Origin: Candidatus Hadarchaeota archaeon
GTDB lineage: Archaea; Hadarchaeota; Hadarchaeia; Hadarchaeales; JAGGTB01
DNA: 64,000 nt
Direction of reading: 5' to 3'
Assembly (NCBI GenBank): GCA_964384105.1
Contig: CAYLJV010000001.1
Coordinates: forward strand, 586,594-650,593
The notes beneath the pieces were generated by a model. That model was not told the origin of the DNA. It made no database searches and saw only the letters and a program-made list of their open reading frames with translations. Positions within the stretch are counted from its first letter, which is position 1. The number at the start of each line of letters is the position of its first letter. Below, piece by piece: positions 1,665-17,584 of this stretch. Both the position numbers and the translations under genes were made by a program.

Positions 1665-2549
1665 GTGAAATTTGTGGAGTATAGTCCTTATCCTAAAGGG
1701 AAAGGAAAAGTAAAATGGGTTTCTACAGATTGGCTCGAAAAGAATCTAGAAGATAAAAATTTAATGGTTATGGACATTCAACCTGATATACACGATTATA
1801 TAACAGAACATATCCCAGAATCAGTATATTTTAACCAGCGTTTGCTTCGTGTGCCTATGAATGGAAGGCCCGGTGTTTACGTTCCTGAAAAGGTGATCGA
1901 ATCACTCTTTAATAGAATTGGTCTCGTGGCTGATACACCAGTTGTTGTTTATACAGGTGTGGGTGATTTCAGGGGGTGGGGCGATGGTTTGGAACAGACT
2001 ATGATGGCATATTCATTAGCCAGATTTGGACATGACAATATTTACGTTTTGGACGGTGGTCTCGATAAATGGAAAAATGAAGATAAAGAACTTACCAAAA
2101 AATTTCCGCAAATAAAAAAATCCGATTTTGATGTCGATGTACGCGAGAATTACAAGGCAGATATGAAAGAAGTTAAGGAAACAAAAGATGATGACGATGT
2201 AATCCTGCTGGATGCTAGGCCACCTGAGATGTATGAGCAACAGTCGATATGGCCAAAGCCTGGTCACATACCTGGAGCTGTGAATCTTCCTTGGAAGAGT
2301 CTTATGTCAGAAGATAATCCTAAGCTTCTGAAACCGGAGAATGAGCTAAAAGATATCCTCGATGAAAAAGAAGTAACAAAGGATAAGAAAATTATTTGTT
2401 CTTGTGGAACTGGAAGAGAAGCCACCAATGAGTTTATTTTACTCAGGTGGTATTTTGATTTTCAGGAAGTTAAGAACTACGAGGGTTCATTTACTGAGTG
2501 GGCTGCTTATCCCGAGAATCCGGTAGTTACTGGAAAGGAACCGTATTAG
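1665..2549 (+). CDS. Rhodanese-domain sulfurtransferase (thiosulfate/3-mercaptopyruvate sulfurtransferase-like, two rhodanese domains)
   Basis: 294 aa. It has the tandem rhodanese architecture and an active-site Cys loop 'CSCGTGREA' near the C-terminus. The start is GTG, immediately preceded by AGAGGAGG. Confidence 0.8.
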   Translation: MKFVEYSPYPKGKGKVKWVSTDWLEKNLEDKNLMVMDIQPDIHDYITEHIPESVYFNQRLLRVPMNGRPGVYVPEKVIESLFNRIGLVADTPVVVYTGVGDFRGWGDGLEQTMMAYSLARFGHDNIYVLDGGLDKWKNEDKELTKKFPQIKKSDFDVDVRENYKADMKEVKETKDDDDVILLDARPPEMYEQQSIWPKPGHIPGAVNLPWKSLMSEDNPKLLKPENELKDILDEKEVTKDKKIICSCGTGREATNEFILLRWYFDFQEVKNYEGSFTEWAAYPENPVVTGKEPY

Positions 2550-2590
2550 ATTGGTTAAAACTTTCAGACCTTTTCTTTTTTTATTTTTAA
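2550..2590 (+). terminator. Oligo-T tract (archaeal-type terminator candidate) after the rhodanese gene
   Basis: The sequence 'ccttttctttttttatttttaa' lies directly downstream of the stop. Archaeal termination commonly uses T-runs. Confidence 0.3.
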
Positions 2591-2631
2591 TAGATCGTAT
2601 GAGTTAAGTAGATTAATGAGAAGGTGAAAAT

Positions 2632-3267
2632 TTGGTAACAAAAATTTTGGTTACTTTCTACTCTTCTTACGGTCATATATACAAGCTTGCTCAGTCGGTG
2701 AAAGAGGGTGTCAATAAAGTAGAGGATACGAGGGTTAAAATGAGACGGATACCCGAGCTTCAAGAAGCTAAAAAGAGGTTGAGTGGTAATGAGGCTTATC
2801 AGAAGGCCCAGAAGGAACAGGCCGAAATACCCGAAGTATCCCTAGACGACCTCAGGGGGGCTGATGGTGTATGTTGGGGAACTCCAACTAGATATGGCAA
2901 TATGGCATCTCAGGTGAAACAATTCCTTGATTCTACTGGTGAGTTATGGCAGGAGGGCGCCCTTGAAGATAAGCCTGCTGGGATATTTACTTCCACGGCT
3001 ACTATTCACGGAGGACAGGAAACTACTATAATATCGTCTCTTATACCACTGATGCATTTAGGGATGGTAATAGTCGGAACACCCTACGGCCAGAATCCTC
3101 AGATAAGGACAATTGAGGCGATAGGTGGTTCTCCTTATGGACCCTCTACGATAGTAGGTCTCGATGGGAGTAGACAGCCTGTCGAAAAAGAATTGGAAAC
3201 AGCACGCAACTTAGGCACTCGAGTTGCAAAGGTAGCTAAAAACCTAAAAAAGATGCGAGAAAGTTAA
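2632..3267 (+). CDS. wrbA: NAD(P)H:quinone oxidoreductase, WrbA/flavodoxin-like
   Basis: 211 aa. The N-terminus 'ILVTFYSSYGHIYKLAQSVKEG' and the overall length match the WrbA type IV NQO family. The start is TTG, preceded by GAAGGTGAAAA. Confidence 0.75.
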   Translation: MVTKILVTFYSSYGHIYKLAQSVKEGVNKVEDTRVKMRRIPELQEAKKRLSGNEAYQKAQKEQAEIPEVSLDDLRGADGVCWGTPTRYGNMASQVKQFLDSTGELWQEGALEDKPAGIFTSTATIHGGQETTIISSLIPLMHLGMVIVGTPYGQNPQIRTIEAIGGSPYGPSTIVGLDGSRQPVEKELETARNLGTRVAKVAKNLKKMRES

Positions 3268-3327
3268 TTTATCTGTTTTTATGTTCTTATTTTAGAAATT
3301 AAGGACTTAGGACATAAATTTTAATTT

Positions 3328-3594
3328 TTAGAGTTTTGAACAAACACTTTCCATAAATTTCAAGGCTTTTATCATTTCTTTTCCTTTTTTTGTGACCCGA
3401 TAGCTTTCATCCCCCTTGTCGTTCTTACTTTCGTATTTTTCAATGTAACCATCTTCAATGAGAACGGAGAGGTATTTTTCTGCCATGTACCAATCGAGGT
3501 TGGCAAATCTGATAATTTGGGTTTTTTTGCAGTCTCTTTTTTCGTTAACAGTTTCAAAAATGTCTAACAGGATTTCGCAAGTGCTTCTAGTCAT
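3328..3594 (-). CDS. Small winged-helix DNA-binding protein (HTH_45-like)
   Basis: 88 aa. 'ILLDI...........I...ANL.W......L..L...G.IE' resembles archaeal wHTH (PF14947-like) proteins. It is a paralog of the ORF at 37124..37387. Confidence 0.55.
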   Translation of the reverse strand: MTRSTCEILLDIFETVNEKRDCKKTQIIRFANLDWYMAEKYLSVLIEDGYIEKYESKNDKGDESYRVTKKGKEMIKALKFMESVCSKL

Positions 3595-3602
3595 TTTTCT
3601 TG

Positions 3603-3634
3603 AATGTAGGCAAACTACATAGATTTCCTACATT
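3603..3634. promoter_or_regulatory. Perfect 8-bp inverted repeat AATGTAGG-N16-CCTACATT in a divergent promoter region
   Basis: It sits 9 nt upstream of the wHTH gene start (3594, minus strand) and about 160 nt upstream of the ATP-cone/sHSP gene. AT-rich TATA-like sequence follows at about 3636-3648. Confidence 0.4.
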
Positions 3635-3792
3635 TAGTATTATTAAGAAGTATCAAATATAAGAATTCAAGCGATCGGAGCTTATTTCGTCTAAAAGAAA
3701 AATTTCGGCCTTAATTGAGAAACAGTAACGATTACTAATCGCTAATCTATTGTTATTGGTTCGAATTAAATGAGAATTGAGGAGGTGAAAAA

Positions 3793-4320
3793 ATGGTTAT
3801 TAATGTAATTAAGAGGGATGGTGAGGAAGAACCTTTTGAGAAGAATAAGATAGTTGATTCTATAGTTAATGCAGGTGCGCCAAAGAAAGTTGCAAAAGAG
3901 ATAGCATCGGAAGTTGAGGATTCGGTTGGTGAGCTCGTATCTACTGAAGAAATAAGAAATATGGTGTTGGCTAGGCTTAAGAAGAGACATAAAAAGTCGG
4001 TTGAAGAGTGGATAAATTACGAAACGGAAGAAAAAGCTAGGGCAAACGTATGTCCTTTGGCTGATATTTATCATGACGGGGAAAAGTATACCTTCAGAAT
4101 AGATCTTCCTGGTGTTTCAAAGGATGAAATAGATTTCAAGATGACAGAAAATGCTTTTTGTCTTACTGCGCCGAAGAAGGCTACTAAGTATTGCGGTTGC
4201 TGGACCTTGCATCACAAGGTTGATATTGAGAAGGCCAAGGCTAAGTTCGAGGATGGAGAATTAACTGTTACAGTGCCTTTGGTTAAGTCCCTTGAAGGAA
4301 AGAAGATCGAGATCGAATAA
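3793..4320 (+). CDS. ATP-cone domain fused to small heat-shock protein (Hsp20/alpha-crystallin domain)
   Basis: 175 aa. Residues 1-80 (MVINVIKRDGEEEPFEKNKIVDSIVNAG...EEIRNMVLARL) match the ATP-cone (NrdR/RNR N-terminal) pattern. Residues about 95-175 (ADIYHDGEKYTFRIDLPGVSKDEIDFKMTENAFCLTAP...AKAKFEDGELTVTVP) match the alpha-crystallin domain. There is a strong SD, GAGGAGGTGAAAAA, before the ATG. Confidence 0.7.
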   Translation: MVINVIKRDGEEEPFEKNKIVDSIVNAGAPKKVAKEIASEVEDSVGELVSTEEIRNMVLARLKKRHKKSVEEWINYETEEKARANVCPLADIYHDGEKYTFRIDLPGVSKDEIDFKMTENAFCLTAPKKATKYCGCWTLHHKVDIEKAKAKFEDGELTVTVPLVKSLEGKKIEIE

Positions 4321-4408
4321 ATACTAATTTCTTGGATTAAGAAATTGGTATATAGTGGGGACCAAACCAGTTATCTTGGTTTTTTCTCTTTCTATTTTTC
4401 TAAATAGT

Positions 4409-5038
4409 CTAGAATATCGGTTTTCCAAGGCCATTTGAAGATGCCTCACATAGATTGTATTCAAGAACCAGTTCACCCGTCTTAGTATCATAAACTTCTA
4501 TTGTATCCTGGAAAACTACGTATTTTGGAACACCGCTTTCGTAATTTCCCATCAAGAATGGGTAAACATCACCTGCTGGATAAGCGCCTTCGTTACGATA
4601 CTCCCCCCATTTTTCTTGATTATTGCTTACTCTCATGATTTTGGCGGACTCCTTTATTCTATATCTAGTATCTGGATCAGTAGTTTGCTCATTCCATCCC
4701 GCTCTCGTTAGCCAACCGAATCTAGTCGTCACCTCATAATCATCGCTATACCAAGTGAAATGATTGAAGCACCATGCACCTATCGATGAGTCTCCTGTGG
4801 GGTTCCAGTCCTCGGACCATTTCATTACAAGCCAAGAATCCTGAGTTCCCGGAAGCCATCCTCCCTCTATCTCCATATCATAGTATCCTAGCCATCCGTT
4901 GAACAGTCTGGCCTTATAATTGAATCCGTATTCGTCGAAACCATTTCTATAATAAGTTGATTTTTCTGCTGTTGATGTTTCTATTCCTATTCCGGCAATT
5001 ACTATCAAAATTAGTCCCAGAACAAGGTATTTTTTCAT
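4409..5038 (-). CDS. Secreted or membrane-anchored hypothetical protein (Trp/Tyr-rich)
   Basis: 209 aa. The N-terminus has a hydrophobic signal/anchor (MKKYLVLGLILIVIAGIGIETSTA). I recognise no catalytic motif. Confidence 0.55.
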   Translation of the reverse strand: MKKYLVLGLILIVIAGIGIETSTAEKSTYYRNGFDEYGFNYKARLFNGWLGYYDMEIEGGWLPGTQDSWLVMKWSEDWNPTGDSSIGAWCFNHFTWYSDDYEVTTRFGWLTRAGWNEQTTDPDTRYRIKESAKIMRVSNNQEKWGEYRNEGAYPAGDVYPFLMGNYESGVPKYVVFQDTIEVYDTKTGELVLEYNLCEASSNGLGKPIF

Positions 5039-5226
5039 TTTTTACCTCTTTTAATCTCAGAAATCGGAATTGTTAGTGCACCTGTAAATTCTTTAACAGG
5101 TCTCTTTATAAATTTAGTAGAAATTGTAGTTCTTAACAAAAGTTATCCAAGTAATGTCTAAAAGAGATTAATTCATTCGATTTACTTAACTATATAAGTT
5201 CACTAAATCTTTCTTTAAAAGGTAAT

Positions 5227-5973
5227 ATGAAAATTTTGCACGTTGACGACGAAGCGGATATTCTAGAACAGTCGAAGATATATCTCGAGGCGGAGGACGA
5301 TCGACTGGACGTTAGGACAGCTATCTCTGCTGAAAAGGGTTTGAAGATGTTGGAGCGGGGAGATTTCGATGCGGTAATCTCGGATTATCAAATGCCCGGC
5401 TTAAATGGCCTGGAATTTTTGGATATTATTAGAAATCAGGAAAAGAGTGACATTCCTTTTATAGTGTTTACTGGAAGAGGCAGAGAGGAAGTTGCCATTA
5501 GAGCTCTTAATCTCGGTGCAAATAGGTATATTCAAAAAGGTGGGGACCCGAAGCCTCAGTTCGTTGTTTTGGCGCGGTCAGTTGTTCAGGAAGTAGAGAG
5601 CAGACTGATGAGAAGGAGATTCAAGGATTTCTTTGAGAATCTTCCCTATATGGCATTTATTATCAATAGTTCGGGAATAGTGGAGGAGTTGAATAATTCT
5701 TTTATTCAAAGTACTGGGTACAAGAAGGAAGAGATAGTAGGAAAACCGATGGTCAGGTTAGTAAATATAATACCGTTTAAAAGTTTACTAAAGTCTGTCC
5801 GTAAATTCTACGAATTTTTACAAAACAATGAGATCTCTCCCTTTGAAATAGAATACAAACATAAAAGTGGGGAGATCCGACGTCTAGAAATTAATGCTGT
5901 TAGTATGGGTAATGACAAGGAGTTAGATCGAGTAATCGGTGTTGCTCGAGATATAACCGATGATAATGAGTAA
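5227..5973 (+). CDS. Response regulator receiver (REC) domain + PAS domain protein
   Basis: 248 aa. 'MKILHVDDEADI...DAVISDYQMPGLNGLEFL' is a CheY-like REC domain. The C-terminal half (YMAFIINSSGIVEELNNSFIQSTGYKKEEIVGKP) is PAS-like. Confidence 0.8.
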   Translation: MKILHVDDEADILEQSKIYLEAEDDRLDVRTAISAEKGLKMLERGDFDAVISDYQMPGLNGLEFLDIIRNQEKSDIPFIVFTGRGREEVAIRALNLGANRYIQKGGDPKPQFVVLARSVVQEVESRLMRRRFKDFFENLPYMAFIINSSGIVEELNNSFIQSTGYKKEEIVGKPMVRLVNIIPFKSLLKSVRKFYEFLQNNEISPFEIEYKHKSGEIRRLEINAVSMGNDKELDRVIGVARDITDDNE

Positions 5974-5998
5974 GACTATTTTCCTCAGATTTTGGTCT

Positions 5999-7006
5999 TT
6001 ATTTCAACCCTTCACTTATGAGGTGAAATTTTAACCCGTATTCGAGGCCTTCTAAGTATGCGGCGATGTCCACCGATCTGACTTTAGGAGCAATTTCCTT
6101 TATTTCTTGGTATTTCTTTTCCCATTCCTCTAATAGATGGTTTCTGACTCCTGAACTTTCTATTTTATCGATATCTTTTTCTTTGATCTCTTCATGCAGG
6201 CTTTCGGGAGAGATAGTTCCATTAATGACAGCGTGTCCAAATATGCCGGAGCTATAATCTCTTTCTTTAAATTCTCTTTTCCAGGTGGTTAACCAGTTTC
6301 CGATCCTGGCCATGTATTGCGATCTCCAGACTATCTCTCGGAGGAGTGGTAAGTCTTGGACTTCGAAATCCGGAGATGACATTATATCAATATCGGTTTG
6401 AGGAAATAGAACCATGTTATGTCCTCCGTATATTTTGGATTCGGTAAGATTTAGCAGGAATGGGTTATTATTTACTAATATTGAGTGATAAAAGGAGTTA
6501 AAAACCTGTTTCATATCATAACGGAATATATTTTTGAATTCTCTAAATCTAGGTAATTTTTTTATCTTTCGTTCTATTTTATCCCATAATTTGGTAGTAA
6601 ACTCTATTTCCTTTTTTTCTAGCGCTTTTTTTGTGCCGATTCTTTTTTTCGGGGTTCCTAGCTGGAATCCTATTCCGCTTTCGAACAGTTCTTCTACTTT
6701 ATAGAGGTCAGCCAAATCGTCGAAAATCGAGACAAAAAGAACCAACATGGTTTTTAGTTCGCCTAGTTCCTGAGTATATTCATCGGGTACTACCGAAAGT
6801 ACGATCCCAGGGTTTCTTTCCGTAGTAAATGTATATACCCATTTCCAGAGGAATCGTTTTCTGTCACCACATTTATCCTCGTATTCGGCTATCAGATTTT
6901 CTAATTCTCCGGGAAGTTTTCTCTCCTTTATTTTATTAACTAGTTCATCTGCCCGTTTGGACTTGGCGAACCCAATTGTTTCTTCTATTGCTCTGCTTTC
7001 TATCAT
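5999..7006 (-). CDS. Class I terpene synthase-like protein (DDxxD + NSE/DTE-like motifs)
   Basis: 335 aa. 'FDDLAD' lies at residues 95-100. 'NWLTTWKRE' lies at residues 237-245 and fits N(D)xx(S/T)xxxE at positions 1, 5 and 9. The roughly 141-aa spacing and the total length match bacterial class I terpene cyclases. There is no second DDxxD, so it is not an isoprenyl diphosphate synthase. Confidence 0.5.
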   Translation of the reverse strand: MIESRAIEETIGFAKSKRADELVNKIKERKLPGELENLIAEYEDKCGDRKRFLWKWVYTFTTERNPGIVLSVVPDEYTQELGELKTMLVLFVSIFDDLADLYKVEELFESGIGFQLGTPKKRIGTKKALEKKEIEFTTKLWDKIERKIKKLPRFREFKNIFRYDMKQVFNSFYHSILVNNNPFLLNLTESKIYGGHNMVLFPQTDIDIMSSPDFEVQDLPLLREIVWRSQYMARIGNWLTTWKREFKERDYSSGIFGHAVINGTISPESLHEEIKEKDIDKIESSGVRNHLLEEWEKKYQEIKEIAPKVRSVDIAAYLEGLEYGLKFHLISEGLK

Positions 7007-7114
7007 TTTTGTCGATCTCTCTACCTACTTAGGGCTTTTTATTTGTAAAAGAGAGGGAAACATAAGTTCGTACATGGGGTAATGTTTTTTTAAGTAGGTG
7101 CTGTAATTTCTCTT

Positions 7115-7435
7115 GTGATAGATTTGTATTTGCAGTTTCTTCCTCACTTTGGAATCGCGATAGGAGCTCTTATTCTGTTGCCATTTATTTGGCTAATAAT
7201 CGGCATTATACTTAGTATTCTCGTCTATAAAGATGCGGAGTCGAGAGGAGAAAACGGTGCTCTATGGCTTTTAGTGGTTTTAATAACAGGAATAATTGGT
7301 TTGATAATTTGGTTAATTGTGAGGCCTAGAAAAAAGCCTATAGGAAGGGAGAAAGGGGTAAAATATTGCTCGGAATGCGGTAGTAGAGTGACCGTGGGCG
7401 ATAAGTATTGTAAGGAATGTGGGAACGAGTTATAG
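7115..7435 (+). CDS. Small membrane protein with C-terminal zinc ribbon
   Basis: 106 aa. It has two predicted TM helices and the C-terminus 'KYCSECGSRVTVGDKYCKECGNEL' (CxxC-x9-CxxC). Confidence 0.5.
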   Translation: MIDLYLQFLPHFGIAIGALILLPFIWLIIGIILSILVYKDAESRGENGALWLLVVLITGIIGLIIWLIVRPRKKPIGREKGVKYCSECGSRVTVGDKYCKECGNEL

Positions 7436-7490
7436 CACTATGGTAGGAAAAACTAAAACCTTATATTTATGCATCAGACTGAGACCATAG

Positions 7491-8873
7491 TTGAATTTGA
7501 TTGGTATTATGACCGAAAAATATGATTTTATCGTTTTTGGAGGCGGTACTGGGAATAAAGTTGCTTCTTATGCTTCAAAAAGAGGTAATAAGGTAGCTCT
7601 GATCGAGCCGGGTCCTCTCGGTGGCACTTGTATAAATCGGGGATGTAATCCTTCTAAAATGCTTATTCATCATGCAGATATTCTCGATACAATCTATAAT
7701 ACAAAAAAATTTCATATTGACGCTACTGTGAATAATGTCGATTTCGGCTCGATAACTGAGGAAATAAGTGAAACATTGGGGGAGGTTGCGAGACGAATAG
7801 GGGTCCGAAAGAAAGAGGATCCAAATCTGGACCTCTACAAAGAGGAAGGTCGTTTTACTTCTGATTTTGACGTTAGAGTTGGTAGAGAGGTTATATCCGG
7901 TGATAAGGTGATTATCGCTGCGGGAAGCAGACCATTCATCCCTCCTTCGATTAATGGATTAGATAAAATCGGTTATATTACTAGTTCTGAGGCGATGTTT
8001 CTGAATGAAAGACCAGAGGAGCTAATCATCCTGGGTGGTGGATACATCGCGGCCGAGCTGGGTTATTTCTTTGGAAGAATGGGGTCTAATGTTACCATTG
8101 TTCAGAGAAGTGATCATCTTTTGTCTAGAGAAGATCGGGAGATAGCGAAGGTTTTTACGAAGATATTCTCTGACCGGTACAGTGTTTTAACGGGGAGTTC
8201 CGTTGTAGGGGCGAGGGAGATGAAAGATGGATTTTCGATTAAAATCGTGAATCGCGCAGGAAATGAAGACATTATTGAGGGTGATGAGGTACTGGTGGCC
8301 CTGGGAAGGCGGCCTAATACTGATTTGTTGGGCCTTGAAAATACAGGAATTGAAACCGATCAGAAAGGATTTATCAAAACGGACAGTCGCTTGGAGACTA
8401 CTGTGAACAATGTTTGGGCCTTGGGTGATATTGCAGGTAATTTCATGTTTAAACATTCGGCTGACTATGAAGCTAAAGTGGTTATTGATAACGCTGTAGA
8501 AGGTAGAAATAGGGTGGCTAATTACAGTGGTGTTCCTCATGCTATCTTTGCTAACCCCCAAATAGGTGCCGTTGGTTCTACCGAACAGGAGCTTAAGGAA
8601 TCTGAAACTGATTATATCAAGGGTTACGCTAAATTTCGGGATATTGCTATGTCCAGAGCACAGAAGTTTGAGCACGGTTTCGTGAAAGTGTTGGTCAGTC
8701 CAGAAAATGGCGAGATTCTTGGATGTCATATCTTGGGACATAAGGCCTCGGTTTTGATTCACGAGATCAGTCTTGCGATAAGGAATGATCTAACTTTTGA
8801 AGAAGTTGCAGATTCGATCCATGTTCATCCTACTTTGAATAAAGTTATAGAAAAGGCCTTTGAGAACTTCTAA
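7491..8873 (+). CDS. FAD-dependent pyridine nucleotide-disulfide oxidoreductase (Lpd/mercuric-reductase-like, class I)
   Basis: 460 aa. It carries 'DFIVFGGGTGN' (FAD-binding), the redox-active disulfide 'GGTCINRGCNPSK' and a C-terminal dimerisation-domain pattern including 'HPT'. Confidence 0.8.
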   Translation: MNLIGIMTEKYDFIVFGGGTGNKVASYASKRGNKVALIEPGPLGGTCINRGCNPSKMLIHHADILDTIYNTKKFHIDATVNNVDFGSITEEISETLGEVARRIGVRKKEDPNLDLYKEEGRFTSDFDVRVGREVISGDKVIIAAGSRPFIPPSINGLDKIGYITSSEAMFLNERPEELIILGGGYIAAELGYFFGRMGSNVTIVQRSDHLLSREDREIAKVFTKIFSDRYSVLTGSSVVGAREMKDGFSIKIVNRAGNEDIIEGDEVLVALGRRPNTDLLGLENTGIETDQKGFIKTDSRLETTVNNVWALGDIAGNFMFKHSADYEAKVVIDNAVEGRNRVANYSGVPHAIFANPQIGAVGSTEQELKESETDYIKGYAKFRDIAMSRAQKFEHGFVKVLVSPENGEILGCHILGHKASVLIHEISLAIRNDLTFEEVADSIHVHPTLNKVIEKAFENF

Positions 8874-9448
8874 TATTTTTCAAGATACCTGATGAATCGG
8901 TCTATCGTCTTTTTTAGACTTTTAAAACCTTCGTTGTCTTTTATTACCCCTTCTTTTGAATCCTTGCTCCAGAATGTTGCACCCAGATTTGCTCCAAATG
9001 ACCCTCCACTGACGGGAATTATTCCATTCATGATGTAGAAGGCATGTATCTGTGTTAGTGCAGTTTCTTGCCCACCTATTCTATCACCACCAACGGCTAT
9101 TCCCATTCCAATTTTCCCTTCAAGTATCCTCTGATCTTTTGCTAGAAGAGCCCTCGTTCTATCCATTACGGCTTTGAGCTTGGCAGATATTCCATTGTTG
9201 TATACGGGAGTTGCGAGTACCAAACCCTTCGATTCTTCGAGAGCAGTAAGTATCGCATTCATCCCGTCGTTGAATGTGCATTCCTCATGTTCTAGACAAT
9301 AGTCACAATGTATGCAGAAGTTTATTTTTTCTTCTCTGAGATTTATTGTAGTCACGGGATGGTTTCGTTTTTCAATCATTTCCCGGGTCTTATCGATTAC
9401 ATATTTAGTAGCTTCTTCTCTTGGGCTACTGTCTATGCATAAGATCAT
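8870..9448 (-). CDS. Iron-sulfur flavoprotein (ISF) / NADPH-dependent FMN reductase family
   Basis: 192 aa. Flavodoxin-like fold with the compact cysteine motif 'CIHCDYCLEHEEC' (Cx2Cx2Cx5C) that is characteristic of archaeal ISF. Its 3' end overlaps the convergent gene by 4 nt. Confidence 0.75.
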   Translation of the reverse strand: MILCIDSSPREEATKYVIDKTREMIEKRNHPVTTINLREEKINFCIHCDYCLEHEECTFNDGMNAILTALEESKGLVLATPVYNNGISAKLKAVMDRTRALLAKDQRILEGKIGMGIAVGGDRIGGQETALTQIHAFYIMNGIIPVSGGSFGANLGATFWSKDSKEGVIKDNEGFKSLKKTIDRFIRYLEKY

Positions 9449-9517
9449 GTGTTTACTGATTTGAATTTCATAACTAAAATACTCGCTGCCTATAACGGGT
9501 ATTTGAAAATTCCTAGC

Positions 9518-9754
9518 TTATTCAATAATAACGCTTGTGTTGGTATCGGTGACTCCTTCAACTTTGCCTATTTCCTCTATTACCACGTTCATTAGTGTGG
9601 ACATATCACTGGCTTCCGCCATTACAATTAAGTCAAAAGGTCCCGTAACAATGTGAATGTTTTTTACTCCTTCGATTTCTTCAATGCTTTCTAGTACATT
9701 TCTTACTTTTCCTACACCGGTTGTGACTAATACATATGCTTCAACCATTTTCAT
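9518..9754 (-). CDS. Stand-alone Lrp/AsnC C-terminal (RAM) domain protein
   Basis: 78 aa. 'VEAYVLVTTGVGK...VTGPFDLIVMAEASDMSTL...V' is a paralog of 408..635. Confidence 0.6.
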   Translation of the reverse strand: MKMVEAYVLVTTGVGKVRNVLESIEEIEGVKNIHIVTGPFDLIVMAEASDMSTLMNVVIEEIGKVEGVTDTNTSVIIE

Positions 9755-9958
9755 TACCTATAGTTAAGGTTTGTTTTCATTCCTTATTATTTATGATTTT
9801 GTTTTTTAATTAGGTTGCATTTAATAATATCTTTCTATATCTTTAGCTTTTCTCAATTGGTTAATAAATTTCTCAGGGATATTCTTCGTTTTTCCAAAAA
9901 TTTAAGTGTCAGATGGAAGTTAAAATTTACCACGTCCTTTTGAGTTAGGGGGGATAAA

Positions 9959-10099
9959 TTGAATGGAAATGGTAGTTGGGAGAATTTTAGCACCGAGGCC
10001 CTTTTAAAGGAAATGAAAAAATATGGGGAGGAAATTAAGAATTTAAAGGCCAGCATTTACGCTATCAAGGCCGAACTGAAAAAGAGAGACGAAATATAA
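9959..10099 (+). CDS. Possible small charged/coiled-coil protein (46 aa). It is not in the ORF track.
   Basis: A TTG start 5 nt after 'GGGGGGAT'. The translation is LNGNGSWENFSTEALLKEMKKYGEEIKNLKASIYAIKAELKKRDEI. It looks more plausible than the low-complexity antisense ORF at 9853..10056. Confidence 0.2.
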   Translation: MNGNGSWENFSTEALLKEMKKYGEEIKNLKASIYAIKAELKKRDEI

Positions 10100-10148
10100 T
10101 TTTTCTTCTACCAATTATTCTAAGAAAATTCTATTTTCGAGATTTAGT

Positions 10149-10766
10149 CTAAATATTTAAATCGATTTCTTCGACCAGTTTCTTGTATCTCTTTCTTATT
10201 TTACTGTTTAAATTGAGGAAGAGCCCTCTTGCCTTCTTTCTCTTTTCTACTTCCAAAAATCTTTTCTTGATTTTATGGCAAGATTCCTCAGTTGGTAGGT
10301 TCCAAGTAAGGTCGTACAGGTCCCTAGCAGTTGGTATTTTTCTATATTGAATCGAGTGGTTAGTTGTGGTGTAAGGTACCCGAGATCCTATTTTCTTTAT
10401 AGTTTCATTCATCAAGATAAGAGACGGGCATTTTATCCCGCTAGCTCCTAAAACAGTTTTTAAAGGATATAGTCGGCAGGCGATTGGTCTCGCAGAATAT
10501 ATCTCACAATTGTTTTCTTTTGTTAGAAAGGGGCAGGGTGAAACATGTTTTTTATAACTTATTTCGTCTTTGTCTGCTTTTCCTTCCAGGTATTCTTTTA
10601 TGAATTCTATCGGCTCCTTTTTGAGGTATTTAGATGCTTTATCAATATCTCTAAGGGACCATTCGGTTCCTAAATTACTACAACACTCGCCGCATTTGCT
10701 ACAAACGAAGGGGATTATTACATCGCCCCAACTTTTGATCCAGAAATGCTGGATTTTGAATATCAT
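10149..10766 (-). CDS. YkgJ-family putative Zn/Fe-chelating protein (CxxCxxCC motif, UPF0153)
   Basis: 205 aa. It has 'CSKCGECC' near the N-terminus and further Cys at 'CPF...C..Y..RP..CRLYP', which is typical of the PF03692 family. Confidence 0.6.
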   Translation of the reverse strand: MIFKIQHFWIKSWGDVIIPFVCSKCGECCSNLGTEWSLRDIDKASKYLKKEPIEFIKEYLEGKADKDEISYKKHVSPCPFLTKENNCEIYSARPIACRLYPLKTVLGASGIKCPSLILMNETIKKIGSRVPYTTTNHSIQYRKIPTARDLYDLTWNLPTEESCHKIKKRFLEVEKRKKARGLFLNLNSKIRKRYKKLVEEIDLNI

Positions 10767-10936
10767 TTTAGGCTATTATTTTTGGTAATGAGGAGATTTT
10801 CTATACTTGGAGAAGGGTGGTATACTGTTCGTAAATCCTCCTCTCAGATACTATTTATCTTCATTATTATGTAGAGTTTTTGGCCAAATCGTGTCCATTA
10901 AACTTTATTAAAACATTTGATTAAATATTCAATTAT

Positions 10937-11221
10937 ATGATTGAGGACAAACTTCTGAAAAAAACTGGAGAAATGTTTAGGATTTTGGGGGACCCAACCC
11001 GGCTTAAGATTTTATTGAATATATCGGATGATGAGAAATGTGTTCATGAAATCGCCAAAGTAACTAAATCGAACATTTCTAACGTTTCGCATCATCTCAG
11101 GAAAATGAAAGACAAAGATCTAGTTGATTATCGGAAGGAGGGGCGTCACAAGTTCTACAAATTGAAGGATGATCATGTTCTCTCTATGATTCGTGAGGGA
11201 ATAGCACATGCAAGAGAATGA
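10937..11221 (+). CDS. ArsR/SmtB-family metalloregulator
   Basis: 94 aa. 'FRILGDPTRLKILLNI...CVHEIA.......SNVSHHLRKMKDKDLV' is the ArsR HTH signature. It overlaps the downstream P-type ATPase start by 14 nt. Confidence 0.8.
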   Translation: MIEDKLLKKTGEMFRILGDPTRLKILLNISDDEKCVHEIAKVTKSNISNVSHHLRKMKDKDLVDYRKEGRHKFYKLKDDHVLSMIREGIAHARE

Positions 11222-13310
11222 AACTGAATATGATTCGTGTCAAGTTTGCGATGATTCTGAAAGTTCAGGTATTTCGGGGAAACTTACGGTCGAATCGGCT
11301 AGAGACATTTGGAAGAGTGAAAGGGCAATTAAAAACTGGGTTGGGGGAGTGATATTAGGAATCGGTTTTATCTTTTTAATTTTCAGTAGTTTTAATGAAT
11401 CAGTTATAATCTTTAGAGGGGAAATATTTTCTATTTCAGATCTGCTTTTCGTTCTTAGCATGGGGGTTGGGGGTGGAACTATTTTGCGAAATGGGTACAT
11501 ATCATTAAAGAAAAGAAACCTTACAATAAGCCTTCTTATGAGTGTTGCTATTCTAAGTTCTATCGTAGTGAGCGTTTTTGGAGGAAGACATCTTTTTTTG
11601 GAAGGGGCCACTCTCGCTTTCCTATTTAATTTCGCCGAGCTCCTAGAAGATTATTCGATAGAAAAAGCCCGCGGTTCTCTGAAAGAGTTGATGGATCTTT
11701 CCCCGGATAAAGCGATCGTTAGAAGGAATGGCGAAAAGGTCGAAATTCCCGTTGAACAGGTTGAGAAAGGTGAGATTGTTGTAATAAAACCTGGAGATCG
11801 AATTGCAGTTGATGGAGAAATAATTGAAGGGAATAGTTCGGTAAATCAGGCTCCGGTTACCGGTGAAAGTATTCCTGTGGATAAACGGGTGGGTGACAAA
11901 GTTTATGCTGGTACGATTAATGAGCAGGGATACTTGGAGATAAAATCTGCCAGTACTGCTGCCGAAAGCACGATATCTAAGATAGTAGAGTTGGTTAGGG
12001 GAGCTGAAAGAAAGAGAACTGAACAGGAAAAGTTTATAGAAAAATTCTCTTCATATTACACTCCCTTTGTTGTGCTTATTGCTGTAGCAATTATTTTGAT
12101 TCCACCATTACTCTTGGGAAGTACTTGGTCTACTTGGTTTATTAGGGGTATTACTATGTTAGTTTTGGCATGTCCTTGCGCTTTTGTGATAAGCACTCCA
12201 GTTAGTGTAGTTTCGGGAATAACTAATGCTGCAAAAAATGGGGTTTTGATATCGGGGGGGAATAGTTTAGAGGCTATGGGAAATGTGTCAGTTATAGCTT
12301 TTGATAAGACGGGCACTCTTACAAAAGGGAAACTTAACGTAACGGATGTAATCCCTTTGAACGGTAGAACAGAGGAGGATGTGATTAAATGTGCATGTGG
12401 CGTAGAAGAGAGAAGTGATCATCCTATTGCAAGGGCTATTGTAAATCACGTGAAGAAGAGTCACGATATTAGCCACGAGCATGGTATTTCAGAGTTTGAA
12501 GAGCTTAGCGGCAAGGGAGTCACTGCGAATTTGGAAGGTAAAAAACACTATGCTGGCAAACCTTCCTTGATAGAAGAACTTGAATTTGACTTGTCTCATG
12601 TGCACCACTCTTCGGATGATGAGCGGATTAGGGATGAAGCAGAGTGGATGTGTGAAAAAGGAAAATGTTTGAATCTCCTTGAGGAGACTATTCCTAGACT
12701 CCAGAGAGAGGGAAAGACGGTTATCCTTGTCACTGCAGAAAACAAACTTGAGGGTATTATAGCTATTGCAGACGAAATTAGAGAGGAAGCGAAAGCTGTA
12801 GTTTCATGGTTTAATTCTAGAGGAATAAAAACCGTGATGTTAACTGGCGATAATGAACGGGCCGCCAAAGCGATTTCTGAAGAGATTGGAATCAAGGAAT
12901 ACAAAGCAGAATTGTTACCTGAAGATAAGGTTAATGAGCTGAAATTATTTTCCGAGAAATATGGAGTTGTCGCGATGGTTGGTGATGGGATAAATGATGC
13001 GCCGGCCTTAGCAGCGGCTGATGTGGGTATCGCAATGGGTGTTTCTGGGACAGATACTGCGGTCGAAACGGCGGATATAGCTCTCCTTCAAGACGATCTT
13101 TCTAAACTACCGTATCTACAAAGATTATCTCGGAAGGCAAATCGAGTTATTAGAAGTAATATCTATGCTAGTTTGGGTATCAAGGCTTTACTTGCGATAG
13201 GTGTGCCTCTGGGATATGTTTCAATTGCACTGGCAGTCCTTGCTGGAGATGCAGGTATGACTGTCGGCGTGACAGGAAATGCTTTAAGGCTTTCTAGATT
13301 GAAGCCTTGA
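11208..13310 (+). CDS. Heavy-metal-translocating P1B-type ATPase
   Basis: 700 aa. TM 'CPC' motif (LVLACPCAFVISTP), phosphorylation motif 'DKTGTLT' and 'GDGINDAPAL'. It has no ferredoxin-fold HMA domain. Instead it has an N-terminal Cys cluster (CQVCDD) and a His/Cys-rich insertion (SHVHHSSDDERIRDEAEWMCEKGKC) in the cytoplasmic domain. Confidence 0.9.
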   Translation: MQENETEYDSCQVCDDSESSGISGKLTVESARDIWKSERAIKNWVGGVILGIGFIFLIFSSFNESVIIFRGEIFSISDLLFVLSMGVGGGTILRNGYISLKKRNLTISLLMSVAILSSIVVSVFGGRHLFLEGATLAFLFNFAELLEDYSIEKARGSLKELMDLSPDKAIVRRNGEKVEIPVEQVEKGEIVVIKPGDRIAVDGEIIEGNSSVNQAPVTGESIPVDKRVGDKVYAGTINEQGYLEIKSASTAAESTISKIVELVRGAERKRTEQEKFIEKFSSYYTPFVVLIAVAIILIPPLLLGSTWSTWFIRGITMLVLACPCAFVISTPVSVVSGITNAAKNGVLISGGNSLEAMGNVSVIAFDKTGTLTKGKLNVTDVIPLNGRTEEDVIKCACGVEERSDHPIARAIVNHVKKSHDISHEHGISEFEELSGKGVTANLEGKKHYAGKPSLIEELEFDLSHVHHSSDDERIRDEAEWMCEKGKCLNLLEETIPRLQREGKTVILVTAENKLEGIIAIADEIREEAKAVVSWFNSRGIKTVMLTGDNERAAKAISEEIGIKEYKAELLPEDKVNELKLFSEKYGVVAMVGDGINDAPALAAADVGIAMGVSGTDTAVETADIALLQDDLSKLPYLQRLSRKANRVIRSNIYASLGIKALLAIGVPLGYVSIALAVLAGDAGMTVGVTGNALRLSRLKP

Positions 13311-13402
13311 AATCTCATAGATTTTAGAGGTATTGTAATTACTTAGTTTAGCAGTTACTATTTTTAGTTGTCTTATTTGCAAATTTCTGAAAATTATACT
13401 GA

Positions 13403-13687
13403 TTAACACGTGTCTACTGAGAGTTTTCTAATTTCTTCTAGGAATTCGGGTATTTCGGGAGTAGATAAACTGTAGATTATATTTCGTCCTTCCCTTCTTC
13501 TGCTTATTAATTTGCATTTTAGCAAGGCTTTTAGATGATGGGAAACCAGGGACTGTTCTTCTTCTAACTCTGCCATTATATCACTAACACATTTTTCTTC
13601 GTTCTCTAGTAGTTTGAGGATTTTGTATCTGATTTCATTTCCAACGCACTTAAGGAGTCTAATTTCGTCTTCTACATTTCCTTCCAC
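13403..13687 (-). CDS. arsR: ArsR-family transcriptional regulator
   Basis: 94 aa. 'KILKLLENEEKCVSDIMAEL...SLVSHHLKALLKCKLI' is the ArsR signature. It is divergent from the ACR3 gene. Confidence 0.8.
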   Translation of the reverse strand: MEGNVEDEIRLLKCVGNEIRYKILKLLENEEKCVSDIMAELEEEQSLVSHHLKALLKCKLISRRREGRNIIYSLSTPEIPEFLEEIRKLSVDTC

Positions 13688-13797
13688 TTTTTTACCCCCA
13701 CAATATTATCATTTCTAGTTCGATATAATTAGTTAATTATATATATGAATTATCCATCATATGAAAATAAAATCATATCTTTACAGGTAGTTGTATA

Positions 13798-14874
13798 ATG
13801 ACAGAAGATTCTCTTGGGGAAAGAGTACGGGAGGAAGGTGAAAGTTTAGAACATGGGCTTAGTTTCTTTGAAAAGTATCTCTCTGTCTGGGTGGCTCTTT
13901 GTATCGTGTTCGGGATAATTCTGGGAAGGGTCCTCCCGGTCGTTCCAGATACATTAAGTAAATTTGAATATGCACAAGTCAATATCCCTGTTGCTATCCT
14001 GATATGGTTTATGATATACCCAATGATGGTGGAAATAGATTTCCAAAGTATTTTGGAAGTGAGAGAAAAACCGAGAGGTCTTCTCGTAACGTGGGTTTCG
14101 AATTGGTTGATTAAACCTTTTAGCATGTACCTGATATTTTGGTTCTTTATGACGAGAGTTTTTGATTCGTTTATATCATCGGGATTGCAGAGTGAATATA
14201 TCGCAGGTGCTGTGTTACTTGGTGCTGCGCCTTGTACGGCTATGGTATTTGTGTGGAGTTATCTCTCAGATGGAGATTCCGCTTATACCTTGGTTCAGGT
14301 TGCAACAAATGATATAATACTTCTGTTTGCCTATGTTCCCATAGTTACATTTCTGTTGGGTATCGGTGGTATAGCAGTTCCCTACGATACTTTGATTCTT
14401 TCCGTGGTCTTGTTCATATTAATACCCCTAACAGCGGGTTACCTATCAAGAAAACACTTGATTAATAAGAATGGCAGAGACTGGTTTGAGAATAAATTCC
14501 TGAAAAAAATAGGGGATTTAACAATAATAGGTCTGCTCCTGACTTTGATTCTTCTCTTTTCGTTCCAGGGTGATGTGATAGTGAATAATCCGATCCATAT
14601 AGCACTGATTGCGGTCCCACTAATTATACAAACCTTTTTCATTTTCTCTATAGCCTATGGCTGGTCTTTCCTATGGAAGCTTGATCACGAAATAGCCGCT
14701 CCTGCATCGATGATTGGAGCTAGCAACTTTTTTGAGCTTGCAGTGGCCGTGGCAATTTCGGTTTTTGGAATAGCCTCTGGCGCGGCTCTCGCTACTGTGG
14801 TTGGTGTACTCGTGGAGGTTCCCTTAATGCTTTCGTTAGTTGGATTCGTAAACAAAACAAGGAAATATTTCTAG
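13798..14874 (+). CDS. acr3: Arsenite efflux transporter, ACR3 family
   Basis: 358 aa with about 10 TM segments. The N-terminus 'LSFFEKYLSVWVALCIVFGIILG' and the overall topology match ACR3/ArsB-type arsenical-resistance permeases. It is divergent from arsR. Confidence 0.8.
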   Translation: MTEDSLGERVREEGESLEHGLSFFEKYLSVWVALCIVFGIILGRVLPVVPDTLSKFEYAQVNIPVAILIWFMIYPMMVEIDFQSILEVREKPRGLLVTWVSNWLIKPFSMYLIFWFFMTRVFDSFISSGLQSEYIAGAVLLGAAPCTAMVFVWSYLSDGDSAYTLVQVATNDIILLFAYVPIVTFLLGIGGIAVPYDTLILSVVLFILIPLTAGYLSRKHLINKNGRDWFENKFLKKIGDLTIIGLLLTLILLFSFQGDVIVNNPIHIALIAVPLIIQTFFIFSIAYGWSFLWKLDHEIAAPASMIGASNFFELAVAVAISVFGIASGAALATVVGVLVEVPLMLSLVGFVNKTRKYF

Positions 14875-14964
14875 CATTGACGATTTGCTTTCGATTTTGA
14901 ATAAAAGGAAAATCTAAATAAGGGGTAATAAAAGGGTTTTTCCGGGTTCAATTGAGGGAGATTA

Positions 14965-15168
14965 TTATTCTTCCCAGCTTATTGCGTTTACGGGACAGCC
15001 ATCAATAGCCCTCTGGATGGTATCTTCGTCGGCCCCTTCTGGATCTTTTACAGTGGATATTCCTTCATCATCTAGTTCAAAAACTTCCGAAGCCAAGGCA
15101 ACACAAACTGCATGCCCCTGACATTTATCTCTATCGACTACAGGTTTTTTCAAAATTTCACCTCCCAT
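14965..15168 (-). CDS. Small ferredoxin (Pyrococcus-type single-cluster Fd)
   Basis: 67 aa. 'DRDKCQGHAVCVALASEVFELDDEG...DGCPVNAI' fits the CxxHxxC...CP pattern. Confidence 0.7.
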   Translation of the reverse strand: MGGEILKKPVVDRDKCQGHAVCVALASEVFELDDEGISTVKDPEGADEDTIQRAIDGCPVNAISWEE

Positions 15169-15274
15169 GAATTAATCTTTTCTATATCTATTCTATCTTT
15201 TGCAAAAAATAAAAAAGAAAGGTTGTGGGTTGAGGCTAGTTGACAAACGGTTTTCTAAGAGAATCGATTTCTCT

Positions 15275-17584
15275 TCAGTAATAAGCACTGGTGCTCTCTT
15301 TAACTTCTTGACCTATTCGTTTTCCCTGTTTCTTTTCGAATTCTTTGTAAGTGTCGACTATTTCTTCAGTGATCGAACCGTGTATCGATTTCAGGGCTTC
15401 TTCAAAGTTCTCCTTAGTGACCTTGTTGGCCTTTACATCGCTTCTTAGGGCAAGCATTCCGGCTTCTTTGCATACCGCCGCTATGTCCGCACCACTGTAC
15501 CCATCAGTTTTCTCTGCCAATTCCTCTAGATCTACGTCCGATGTCAGCGGCATTTTCTCGGTGTGGATTTCGAATATCTTTTTCCTAGCTTCCTTATCGG
15601 GTGCCGGGACCATCATGATTCGATCGAGTCTACCTGGTCTTAGTAAGGCTGAGTCAATCAGATCAGGTCTGTTTGTAGCACCGATTACCATTACGTTTTC
15701 TAATTCTTCCAGTCCGTCCATCTCAGTGAGAATTTGGCTGAGAACTCTTTCCCCTACTTGGGATCCACCTATGGACGTTCCTCGCTTTGGTACCATCGCG
15801 TCTATTTCGTCGAAGAATATTACAGTGGGTGCTGCCTGTCTTGCCTTCTTGAATGTTTCTCTGACCCCCTTCTCGGATTCACCGACCCACTTGGATAGTA
15901 ACTCGGGTCCTTTTATTGAGATGAAGTTTGCATTACTCTCCGTGGCCACCGCACGAGCCAACATTGTCTTACCCGTTCCAGGAGGTCCGTAGAGCAATAC
16001 ACCATTAGGAGCTTTTATTCCAAGATTGTCGAACATTTCTGGATTGTTCAGTGGCCACTCTACCGATTCACGAAGTTTTTGTTTCACTTCTTCTAAACCA
16101 CCAACATCATCCCAGTGGGTGTCTGGAACTTGGACTAGAACCTCCCTCATCGCCGAGGGTTCTACTTGTTGGAGGGATTTTCTGAAGTTCTCTCCAGTGA
16201 CCTCTAGTTTCTCCAGTGTTTCTGAGGGGATTCTCTTTTCCTCGAGGTCAATTTCGGGTAGTATATCTCTTAGCGCATCCATTGCTGCCTCTCTGGCCAG
16301 AGCGGCTAGATCGGCTCCGACGTATCCATGTGTGCTGTCAGTGATTTTGTCAAGATTAACGTCATCGCTCATTGGCATCCCCCGTGTGTGGATTTGGAGT
16401 ATCTCTTTACGACCTTCTCTGCTGGGGACTCCCACTTCTATTTCACGATCGAATCTGCCGGGTCGCCGTAGTGCGGGGTCGACAGCGTTTACCCTGTTAG
16501 TTGCGGCTATCACCACTATCTTGCCTCTGGCTTCAAGGCCGTCCATCAGGGAGAGTAGCTGTGAAACGACACGTTTTTCCACATCTCCGGTGGTCTCTTC
16601 TCGTTTTGTTGCTATCGCGTCGATTTCGTCTATGAATATTATGGATGGTGCATTCTTTTTGGCTTCCTCAAAGATCTCTCTTATCTTCTTCTCGGATTCG
16701 CCGTAGAATTTTGACATTATCTCGGGGCCAGCTACGGATTGGAAGTATGCATCCGATTCATTTGCCACAGCTTTTGCTATCAGGGTTTTTCCGGTTCCGG
16801 GTGGTCCATGGAGTAGAACTCCTTTTGGAGGTTCTATTCCCAGCCTGTCGAAGAGTTCAGGGTGTTTGAGAGGCAGTTCGACCATCTCTCGAACTCGCTG
16901 AATTTCTTTCTCTAGACCACCTATATCCTCATAAGTGACTGTGGGTGCTGCGGCTTCCTCGATTTCGACTGGTTTAGATGAAAGGTTTACCTTTGTTTGT
17001 CTTGTGACTAGTACGATATCGTCGGGTTTTGCGTTTGTTACTACGAATCGAATTTCGCCAAGTCCGAAGGAGGATGACGAAGGTGAGGCTTCTTTGAACA
17101 TGTCACCAAAGAATTGAGATATTATCGAGTCGGCTCCCCATTGAACTTTCTGTTGGAATCCTGTAGGTGTTATTAAGTCGCCTTTTGAGGCCGGTCGGCC
17201 TAAGAGACTCCTTTTGAGGGCTCTTCCCCCGCCTTGGATTCTAATATTTTTATCGGTGGGAGCTATTGTTATTCTTTCGGCCTCTTTTACATCTGCTTTT
17301 TTGACTGTTACTTTTTCACCGATAGAAGTGCCAGCGTTTTTTCTTTCCAAACCGTCAAGCCTTATGATGTCTAGGCCTTCGTCTTCTCTGTAACTCGATC
17401 TGATAATTGCTCCGGTTTTATTTGTTCCTTCTATCTCTACTATGTCGCCTTGCTTGATCCCTAATCTTTCCATTCCACTCCGGCTTATCCTTGCCACACT
17501 TCTTCCCACGTCTTGCTGTCTGCGTGCTTCTGCTACGGTAAGTCGTATTCCGTCTTTTTTATTATCTTCCGACATCTTTTTCAC
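15275..17584 (-). CDS. cdc48: CDC48/VCP-like AAA+ ATPase (VAT), two AAA domains
   Basis: 769 aa. It has the N-domain (VAEA...GRSVARI...GDIVEIEG), two Walker A sites ([18 protein letters not shown]), two Walker B sites ([18 protein letters not shown]) and second-region-of-homology (SRH) motifs. The several antisense ORFs inside it are spurious. Confidence 0.95.

Follow-up and report, generated by a model that had tools for sequence, protein, structure and literature searches.

An archaeal gene joining an ATP-cone to an alpha-crystallin domain: a candidate nucleotide-gated small heat-shock protein

Small heat-shock proteins (sHSPs), by definition, are ATP-independent chaperones that lack a nucleotide-binding domain. 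They build dynamic oligomers that suppress aggregation without ATP. Their activity follows the dynamics of these oligomers, which are controlled by an N-terminal arm and a C-terminal I-x-I tail, and their activation is usually ascribed to temperature, pH, phosphorylation or client load. The N-terminal region is typically variable and largely disordered, serving client binding and assembly, and sHSPs of the non-metazoan type dimerize by strand swapping through a beta6 loop. ATP-cones, which span ~90 residues, fold as a beta-hairpin 'roof' above a four-helix bundle and, to our knowledge, all those characterised act on ribonucleotide reductases (RNRs) or on the repressor NrdR. In these proteins the cones turn their occupancy by ATP or dATP into altered quaternary structure, the link being contacts between cones (PMC9110341, PMC11226230). 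Here we describe a gene that joins an ATP-cone to an alpha-crystallin domain (ACD) and whose product may be a nucleotide-gated sHSP. It lies at positions 3793-4320 (+ strand) of a 64,000-nucleotide stretch, hereafter the window, taken from a Candidatus Hadarchaeota archaeon (GCA_964384105.1, contig CAYLJV010000001.1, positions 586,594 to 650,593).

The fusion is encoded by a single open reading frame (ORF) of 175 codons (175 aa), with a TAA stop at 4318-4320. The frame between stops opens at 3781, leaving the ATG at 3793 as the sole start available, and a Shine-Dalgarno site (AGGAGGTGA, 3780-3788, + strand) lies 4 nt 5' of it, so that the strong ribosome binding site proposed in the initial annotation of this DNA was recovered. 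That annotation had described the product as an ATP-cone of ~80 aa followed by an alpha-crystallin domain of ~80 aa and had quoted two peptides, IDLPGVSKDEI... and AKAKFEDGELTVTVP, both of which were found in the translation. The two halves share one frame without an internal stop or frameshift, indicating that they are not separate genes misread as one. Both domain assignments were also borne out: PF03477 and PF00011 scored above their Pfam gathering cut-offs, with further agreement from profile comparison against the PDB and from AlphaFold2 (AF2) modelling with Foldseek for the N-terminal half, and from NCBIfam and AF2 with Foldseek for the C-terminal half.

The ATP-cone (3799-4023, + strand) spans residues 3-77, with its last helix extending to ~82, and matched PF03477 with E 1.4e-13 (51.6 bits against a gathering cut-off of 25.8). 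Several NCBIfam models for RNRs and 2-phosphoglycerate kinase matched as well, in each case only within the N-terminal cone. The sequence carries the cone motif V5-x-K7-R8-D9-G10...F15...K19-I20...T51-x-x-I54-R55...W73..Y76, and a profile built from an alignment of cones (A2) matched the PDB ATP-cones of NrdD, NrdR and NrdB. When this profile was aligned to P. copri NrdD (PcNrdD; 8p23, E 3e-6), K7, R8 and D9 coincided with Lys7, Arg8 and Asp9, and Y76 with Tyr83. In PcNrdD, Lys7 and Arg8 coordinate the triphosphate, and Tyr83 stacks on the outer of the two bound nucleotides (PMC11226230). Among aligned stand-alone cones, K19 is conserved in all 34, K7, F15 and I54 in 32 each, and Y76 in 27. 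Judged from the sequence, the nucleotide-contact motif (K7, R8, D9, Y76) is intact.

A model of the cone by itself (residues 1-85, AF2) had a predicted local distance difference test score (pLDDT) of 90.7, and the elements of the ATP-cone fold were predicted at pLDDT 91-95 (strands 4-6 and 12-14; helices 17-26, 31-44, 51-65 and 67-82/84). Foldseek comparison with the PDB gave 27 matches with E <= 0.001, every one of them NrdD, NrdB, NrdA or NrdR (TMq up to 0.86). These were led by two-nucleotide cones (9d3x, 5olk, 8p28, 5im3, 7p37) belonging to S. thermophilus and P. copri NrdD, L. blandensis NrdB, P. aeruginosa NrdA and NrdR. The protein resembles RNRs (PaNrdA 5IM3, LbNrdB 5OLK, PcNrdD 8P28) and NrdR (7P37) in having an N-terminal cone of what is predicted to be the same fold (TMq 0.74-0.86), and by analogy it may represent the same arrangement of a portable cone on an effector whose oligomeric state is set by nucleotide-dependent cone-cone contacts (PMC9110341, PMC11226230). 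It differs from them in that the effector is a chaperone domain rather than an RNR subunit or a DNA-binding Zn-ribbon, and no link to dNTP metabolism is apparent. Assignment to NrdR itself does not fit, as in NrdR the cone follows an N-terminal Zn-ribbon with two CxxC motifs, whereas here the cone starts at residue 3 with no Zn-ribbon, and TIGR00244 matched the cone only (E 0.0018). Among the matches listed, the closest to residues 1-83 were stand-alone archaeal ATP-cones of ~85 aa (including P0033 and P0037), 45-49% identical over their whole length. They have the pattern VxKRDG...F...KI...T..IR...W..Y in common with the fusion, but a short basic KKR tail closes them at the point from which the fusion goes on into its crystallin domain.

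The alpha-crystallin (Hsp20) domain with its C-terminal extension (4066-4314, + strand; residues 92-174) matched PF00011 with E 4.7e-8 (33.5 bits, gathering cut-off 20.8), and the NCBIfam archaeal Hsp20 model aligned to residues 61-175, reaching the model's C-terminal end, with E 1.2e-16 and a score below the equivalog cut-off. For this half, a search of PDB sequences gave a match to 4rzk. The same entry, the S. solfataricus Hsp20.1 ACD, headed the Foldseek results (E 3e-8, TM 0.85, rmsd 1.5 A, 30% identity), followed by Hsp14.1, S. pombe Hsp16.0, M. jannaschii Hsp16.5 and wheat Hsp16.9; each of the 14 leading structural matches was an sHSP, with CS domains ranking lower. In common with the archaeal sHSPs (Hsp20.1 4RZK, Hsp14.1, Hsp16.5), the domain has the beta-sandwich, the LPGV motif, the A-x-x-x-x-G-x-L motif (A150-x-F-x-x-G155-x-L157) and an I-x-I tail (I172-E173-I174; 4306-4314, + strand), the protein ending ...G-K-K-I172-E-I174-E with E175 terminal. 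This I/V-x-I/V motif docks onto neighbouring domains in oligomer assembly of sHSPs (PMC9133787). At the two I-x-I columns, Ile or Val is found in 39/47 and 43/47 of the related small ACDs (mini-ACDs).

These mini-ACDs are stand-alone proteins of anaerobic archaea, and among the matches listed those of 97-100 aa were closest to residues 79-175, with up to 55% identity. Named sources are Methanobacterium (P0003, annotated as Methanobacterium sp.) and Halobacteriota and Bathyarchaeia (the P0004 cluster). Together with P0002, these proteins resemble the fusion in their short loop, their Cys and His residues and their I-x-I tail. They differ in having only ~10 residues before the first strand, with no ATP-cone and no adjoining ATP-cone gene; like the crystallin half of the fusion, they possess no N-terminal arm of the usual kind. 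A tetrad of residues shared with the fusion, H94/C123/C136/H141 (window 4072-4215), is complete in 26 of the 47 sequences of the mini-ACD alignment (A3), and C123 and C136, which lie on adjacent strands, tend to disappear together among these relatives. From this pattern we suspect a site that binds metal or responds to redox state and that sHSPs do not generally have, and the Cys/His-rich character of the domain sets it apart from the archaeal sHSPs named above.

At the junction (4024-4065, + strand; residues 78-91), the last cone helix (to residue 82) leads to the first crystallin strand (84-86). The full-length protein was modelled by AF2 on an alignment (A4) of 25 stand-alone cones and 6 stand-alone ACDs, each placed on the correct half, giving a mean pLDDT of 95.1 and a predicted TM-score (pTM) of 0.71. 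Block means over residues 71-90 were 91-92, and helix 67-82 was predicted to pass directly into strand 84-86 without a disordered linker; the later crystallin strands were placed at 90-94, 98-104, 114-117, 121-127, 131-138, 149-153 and 156-163. Because the last cone helix leads without a break to the first crystallin strand, the cone appears to replace the usual disordered arm, which was not observed in the fusion. This marks a clear departure from the archaeal sHSPs, where a variable, disordered segment occupies the position of the folded ATP-cone. In the alignments (A2, A3 and A4) the junction corresponds to the C-terminal tails of stand-alone cones and the N-termini of mini-sHSPs: the fusion's ...W73-I-N-Y76-E-T-E-E-K-A... 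aligns with the W..Y(D/E)...KKR tail of the cone family, and its E-E-K-A-R-A-N-V-C-P88 with the mini-ACD N-terminus M-x-E-E-x-x-K-x-P-V-x-P. As read from these alignments, the two otherwise stand-alone archaeal protein types are joined nearly end to start.

A nucleotide-gated sHSP is in our view the most economical reading of this architecture, because the cone holds the N-terminal position and is rigidly joined to the crystallin domain. By analogy with what each module does elsewhere, we assign it a probability of roughly 50%. The nucleotide-contact residues, the I-x-I motif, the placement of the cone in the arm position and the rigid, confidently predicted junction are all consistent with gating. 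The crystallin domains would assemble, as in other sHSPs, through docking of I-x-I tails on neighbouring domains, and the cones would bind ATP and/or dATP, as suggested by a predicted fold nearest to the two-nucleotide cones of NrdD, NrdB and NrdR and by retention of the stacking tyrosine. Like those of RNRs and NrdR, the cones might then pair or un-pair depending on the nucleotide bound, and pairing could move the oligomer between storage and client-binding states. In this way the holdase would track the adenylate/dATP status of the cell, its activity being switched on, for example, under ATP shortage with the ATP-dependent chaperones stalled. A more elaborate version, which we regard as quite doubtful, is a two-input stress chaperone in which the cone reads the adenylate/dATP pool and the His-Cys-Cys-His site reads redox or metal status, the two jointly setting oligomeric state and holdase activity.

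If nucleotide gating is correct, the protein would be the first nucleotide-allosteric sHSP, and a nucleotide sensor on an 'ATP-independent' chaperone would surprise specialists. It would add a new control logic for sHSPs, coupling a holdase to energy or dNTP status, and would identify the ATP-cone as a generic, transplantable switch for nucleotide-dependent assembly beyond dNTP metabolism. Moreover, a protein of 175 aa with a confidently predicted fold could be a possible design template for nucleotide-switchable assemblies.

Several observations weigh against nucleotide gating, two of which concern the domains themselves. In PcNrdD, Arg11, Arg87 and Arg91 are basic residues that neutralise the triphosphates. 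They are not matched by position in the fusion, which has E11, E80 and A84 instead, with K81 and R83 nearby; this makes the affinity and stoichiometry of nucleotide binding uncertain. In the crystallin half, the beta6 strand-swap loop by which classical archaeal sHSPs dimerize was sought in the sequence and the AF2 model and not found. Its beta5-beta7 loop comprises only 6 residues, lying between A126 and Y133, and in the model strands 121-127 and 131-138 are linked by a turn of 3 residues.

The remaining observations concern distribution. An exhaustive phmmer search with the full protein against 1.84 billion cluster representatives produced 794 matches at E <= 0.001, and in the best 150 of these, inspected down to ~44 bits, the fusion alone covered both halves. 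A fusion with ~25 bits per half would rank inside this set, while more distant ones could score lower. A word-indexed search with the whole protein, an insensitive method, returned only the protein itself, and pattern scans covering the GTDB genomes, the metagenomes of JGI and viral contigs yielded stand-alone ACDs and no relative of the fusion. Among 35 loci scanned with hidden Markov models, the window's own copy was the only one with a cone and an ACD together. The nearest genome found (GCA_964510375.1), whose WrbA is 74% identical to that encoded just upstream in the window, does not have the fusion locus at the syntenic position; a dCTP deaminase follows WrbA there instead. The fusion is thus a singleton without orthologues, so that comparison with other genomes offers no evidence that the combination is under selection, and since it is confined to one uncultured archaeon its biological importance may be local. 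Literature searches pairing ATP-cone with Hsp20, small heat shock protein or crystallin did not find the combination either; the pairing of domains is new, whereas both component modules are well known.

Among the rival readings, these findings give most weight to the view that the gene is a recent, lineage-specific fusion, neutral or degenerate, in which a stand-alone ATP-cone gene and a stand-alone mini-sHSP gene became one through a deletion or insertion. The product would then be a mini-sHSP or a cone protein with a passenger domain, and nucleotides would exert no control over chaperone activity. Besides the singleton architecture among the inspected matches, the lack of conserved linkage between the cone and ACD families across the 35 loci and the absence of the locus from the relative with 74% WrbA identity, this view is favoured by the end-to-end alignment of the halves with 85-aa and 100-aa proteins, few terminal residues having been lost. 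In addition, the same cone clade is joined to unrelated partners in other proteins (P0047, P0052, P0058), which indicates that such fusions arise readily. However, both domains have kept all the residues conserved in their families, including those for nucleotide contact and the I-x-I motif, and the ORF has an optimal Shine-Dalgarno site. The junction is also modelled as a continuous, well-packed helix-strand transition with no scar, and repeated cone fusions elsewhere have made working allosteric switches, such as the NrdB fusion 5olk. On balance, we consider a mere passenger arrangement unlikely, though it merits serious attention.

A further possibility is that the C-terminal half is not a holdase but an interaction module resembling CS/p23 domains, making the protein a nucleotide-sensing adaptor (recruiting or regulating a partner such as Cdc48 or the thermosome) or a metal/redox factor acting through the His-Cys-Cys-His residues. 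When compared with CS/p23-like families (PF04969, PF18201), this half scored above the Pfam cut-off for PIH1_CS (26.5 bits against 23.3) and below it for CS (18.9 against 21.3), and the CS domains of Sgt1, USP19 and PIH1D1 were present within its Foldseek matches. The minimal domain, which lacks an N-terminal arm and has a short beta5-beta7 loop, is also reminiscent of CS domains, and the tetrad found in 26/47 relatives, the redox- and metal-rich neighbourhood and a Cdc48 gene 11 kb away would suit such a role. Nevertheless, HSP20 remained the best Pfam match, the NCBIfam archaeal Hsp20 model aligned through the extreme C-terminus, the first 14 structural matches were sHSPs without exception, and the C-terminal I-x-I tail is a trait of sHSPs and not of CS domains. 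We therefore regard a CS/p23-like module as improbable. Finally, no more than a single genome or sample carries the fusion; nevertheless, an artefact in which a chimeric contig or indel error merged two separate genes is extremely unlikely, because an independent assembly gives exactly the same gene: a Logan contig (L001, run SRR7048220, 3,382 bp) matches window 3282-6663 with 100% identity across the junction, the identical protein (P0001) is present in NCBI on a 717-kb contig and in Logan, the two halves are alike in G+C content (0.38 and 0.41), the junction contains no leftover start, stop or Shine-Dalgarno site, and a seamless in-frame chimera with a junction predicted to fold this confidently would be very improbable. 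The fusion is a genuine archaeal gene for a two-domain protein.

Several candidates for a shared architecture were considered and set aside. Among the matches listed, P0142 (175 aa) and P0103 (186 aa) proved to be ordinary sHSPs with charged N-termini, and those with two matched stretches turned out to be ACDs that the beta6 loop divides or else double ATP-cones. A Rosetta-stone relationship, with cone and ACD genes adjacent elsewhere, was not supported by the surroundings of P0002, P0152, P0033 and P0037, where no co-occurrence was seen.

The small archaeal cone clade was encountered in other combinations. P0047 has a multi-pass membrane tail, in P0052 the cone is fused to the C-terminus of a membrane protein, P0058 carries an uncharacterised 100-aa domain and P0108 (678 aa) has two cones; Pfam recognised no partner domain in these four proteins. 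The 87-aa stand-alone cone P0033 is annotated by JGI as 'transcriptional regulator NrdR family protein' even though it has no Zn-ribbon, probably an over-annotation that is propagating in databases. On the crystallin side, three or four tandem alpha-crystallin domains related to the mini-ACDs were found in P0034 (609 aa), P0100 (590 aa) and P0074 (305 aa). In a JGI metagenome contig (L019), response-regulator-like ORFs (592-1032 and 2465-2911) lie directly upstream of a mini-ACD gene (2947-3300); a response-regulator/PAS gene (5227-5973) is near the fusion in the window too.

Upstream of the fusion and divergent from it lies a gene for an 88-aa winged-helix protein (3328-3594, - strand; HTH_45, PF14947, E 8.6e-17), a possible local regulator whose presence had been correctly noted in the initial annotation. 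No homologue of it adjoined any other mini-ACD or ATP-cone locus examined. The intergenic region (3595-3792, 198 bp) contains an inverted repeat directly upstream of the winged-helix gene start (3603-3617/3620-3634; 15 nt, 87% complementary, 2-nt spacer) and, upstream of the fusion gene, an 11-mer direct repeat with its copies 55 nt apart (TTAATTGAGAA, 3711-3721; TTAAATGAGAA, 3766-3776). These repeats are possible operator or promoter elements. A scan of the region for sigma-70-like promoters found none; because the host is an archaeon, a promoter with a B recognition element and TATA box would be expected instead.

The 3' flank (4326-4399) separates the fusion from a convergent gene. It contains a hairpin (AATTTCTT-ggatt-AAGAAATT, 4326-4346) and T-runs at 4380-4385 and 4395-4399, and is likely to be an archaeal oligo-T termination zone; a scan for bacterial-type terminators was negative, which is uninformative for an archaeon. 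With such a zone and a convergent downstream gene, the fusion gene would be monocistronic. The convergent gene (4409-5038, - strand) encodes 209 aa, beginning with a signal-peptide-like or transmembrane segment (MKKYLVLGLILIVIAGIGI...). It had no Pfam match, nor did the ORFs at 5999-7006 (- strand, 335 aa) and 23998-25392 (- strand, 464 aa), and an Rfam scan of the window gave no match. The block at 3300-7006, comprising the genes for the winged-helix protein, the fusion, the 209-aa protein, the response-regulator/PAS protein and the 335-aa protein, is missing downstream of WrbA in GCA_964510375.1 (L016) and looks like lineage-specific or variable DNA. Two JGI contigs with WrbA relatives have different downstream genes, without the winged-helix/fusion locus.

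Around the fusion, redox, metal and stress genes extend over window 1665-17584: a rhodanese (1665-2549), the WrbA-type NAD(P)H:quinone oxidoreductase (2632-3267), a pyridine-nucleotide disulfide oxidoreductase (7491-8873), an FMN reductase (8870-9448), a CxxCxxCC protein (10149-10766), a P-type ATPase (11208-13310), an SBF/ACR3-like transporter (13798-14874) and the Cdc48 AAA+ protein (15275-17584). The window's isoleucyl-tRNA synthetase shares 71% identity with its counterpart in an MSBL1 single-cell genome and 70% with the one in a Hadarchaeia metagenome-assembled genome, placing the host by sequence as an uncultured MSBL1/Hadarchaeia-like archaeon. The window also contains an AFOR gene and a NurA-HerA nuclease/helicase pair (20403-21578 and 21578-23110), which we take to be the archaeal DNA end-resection module and whose two ORFs have base 21578 in common.

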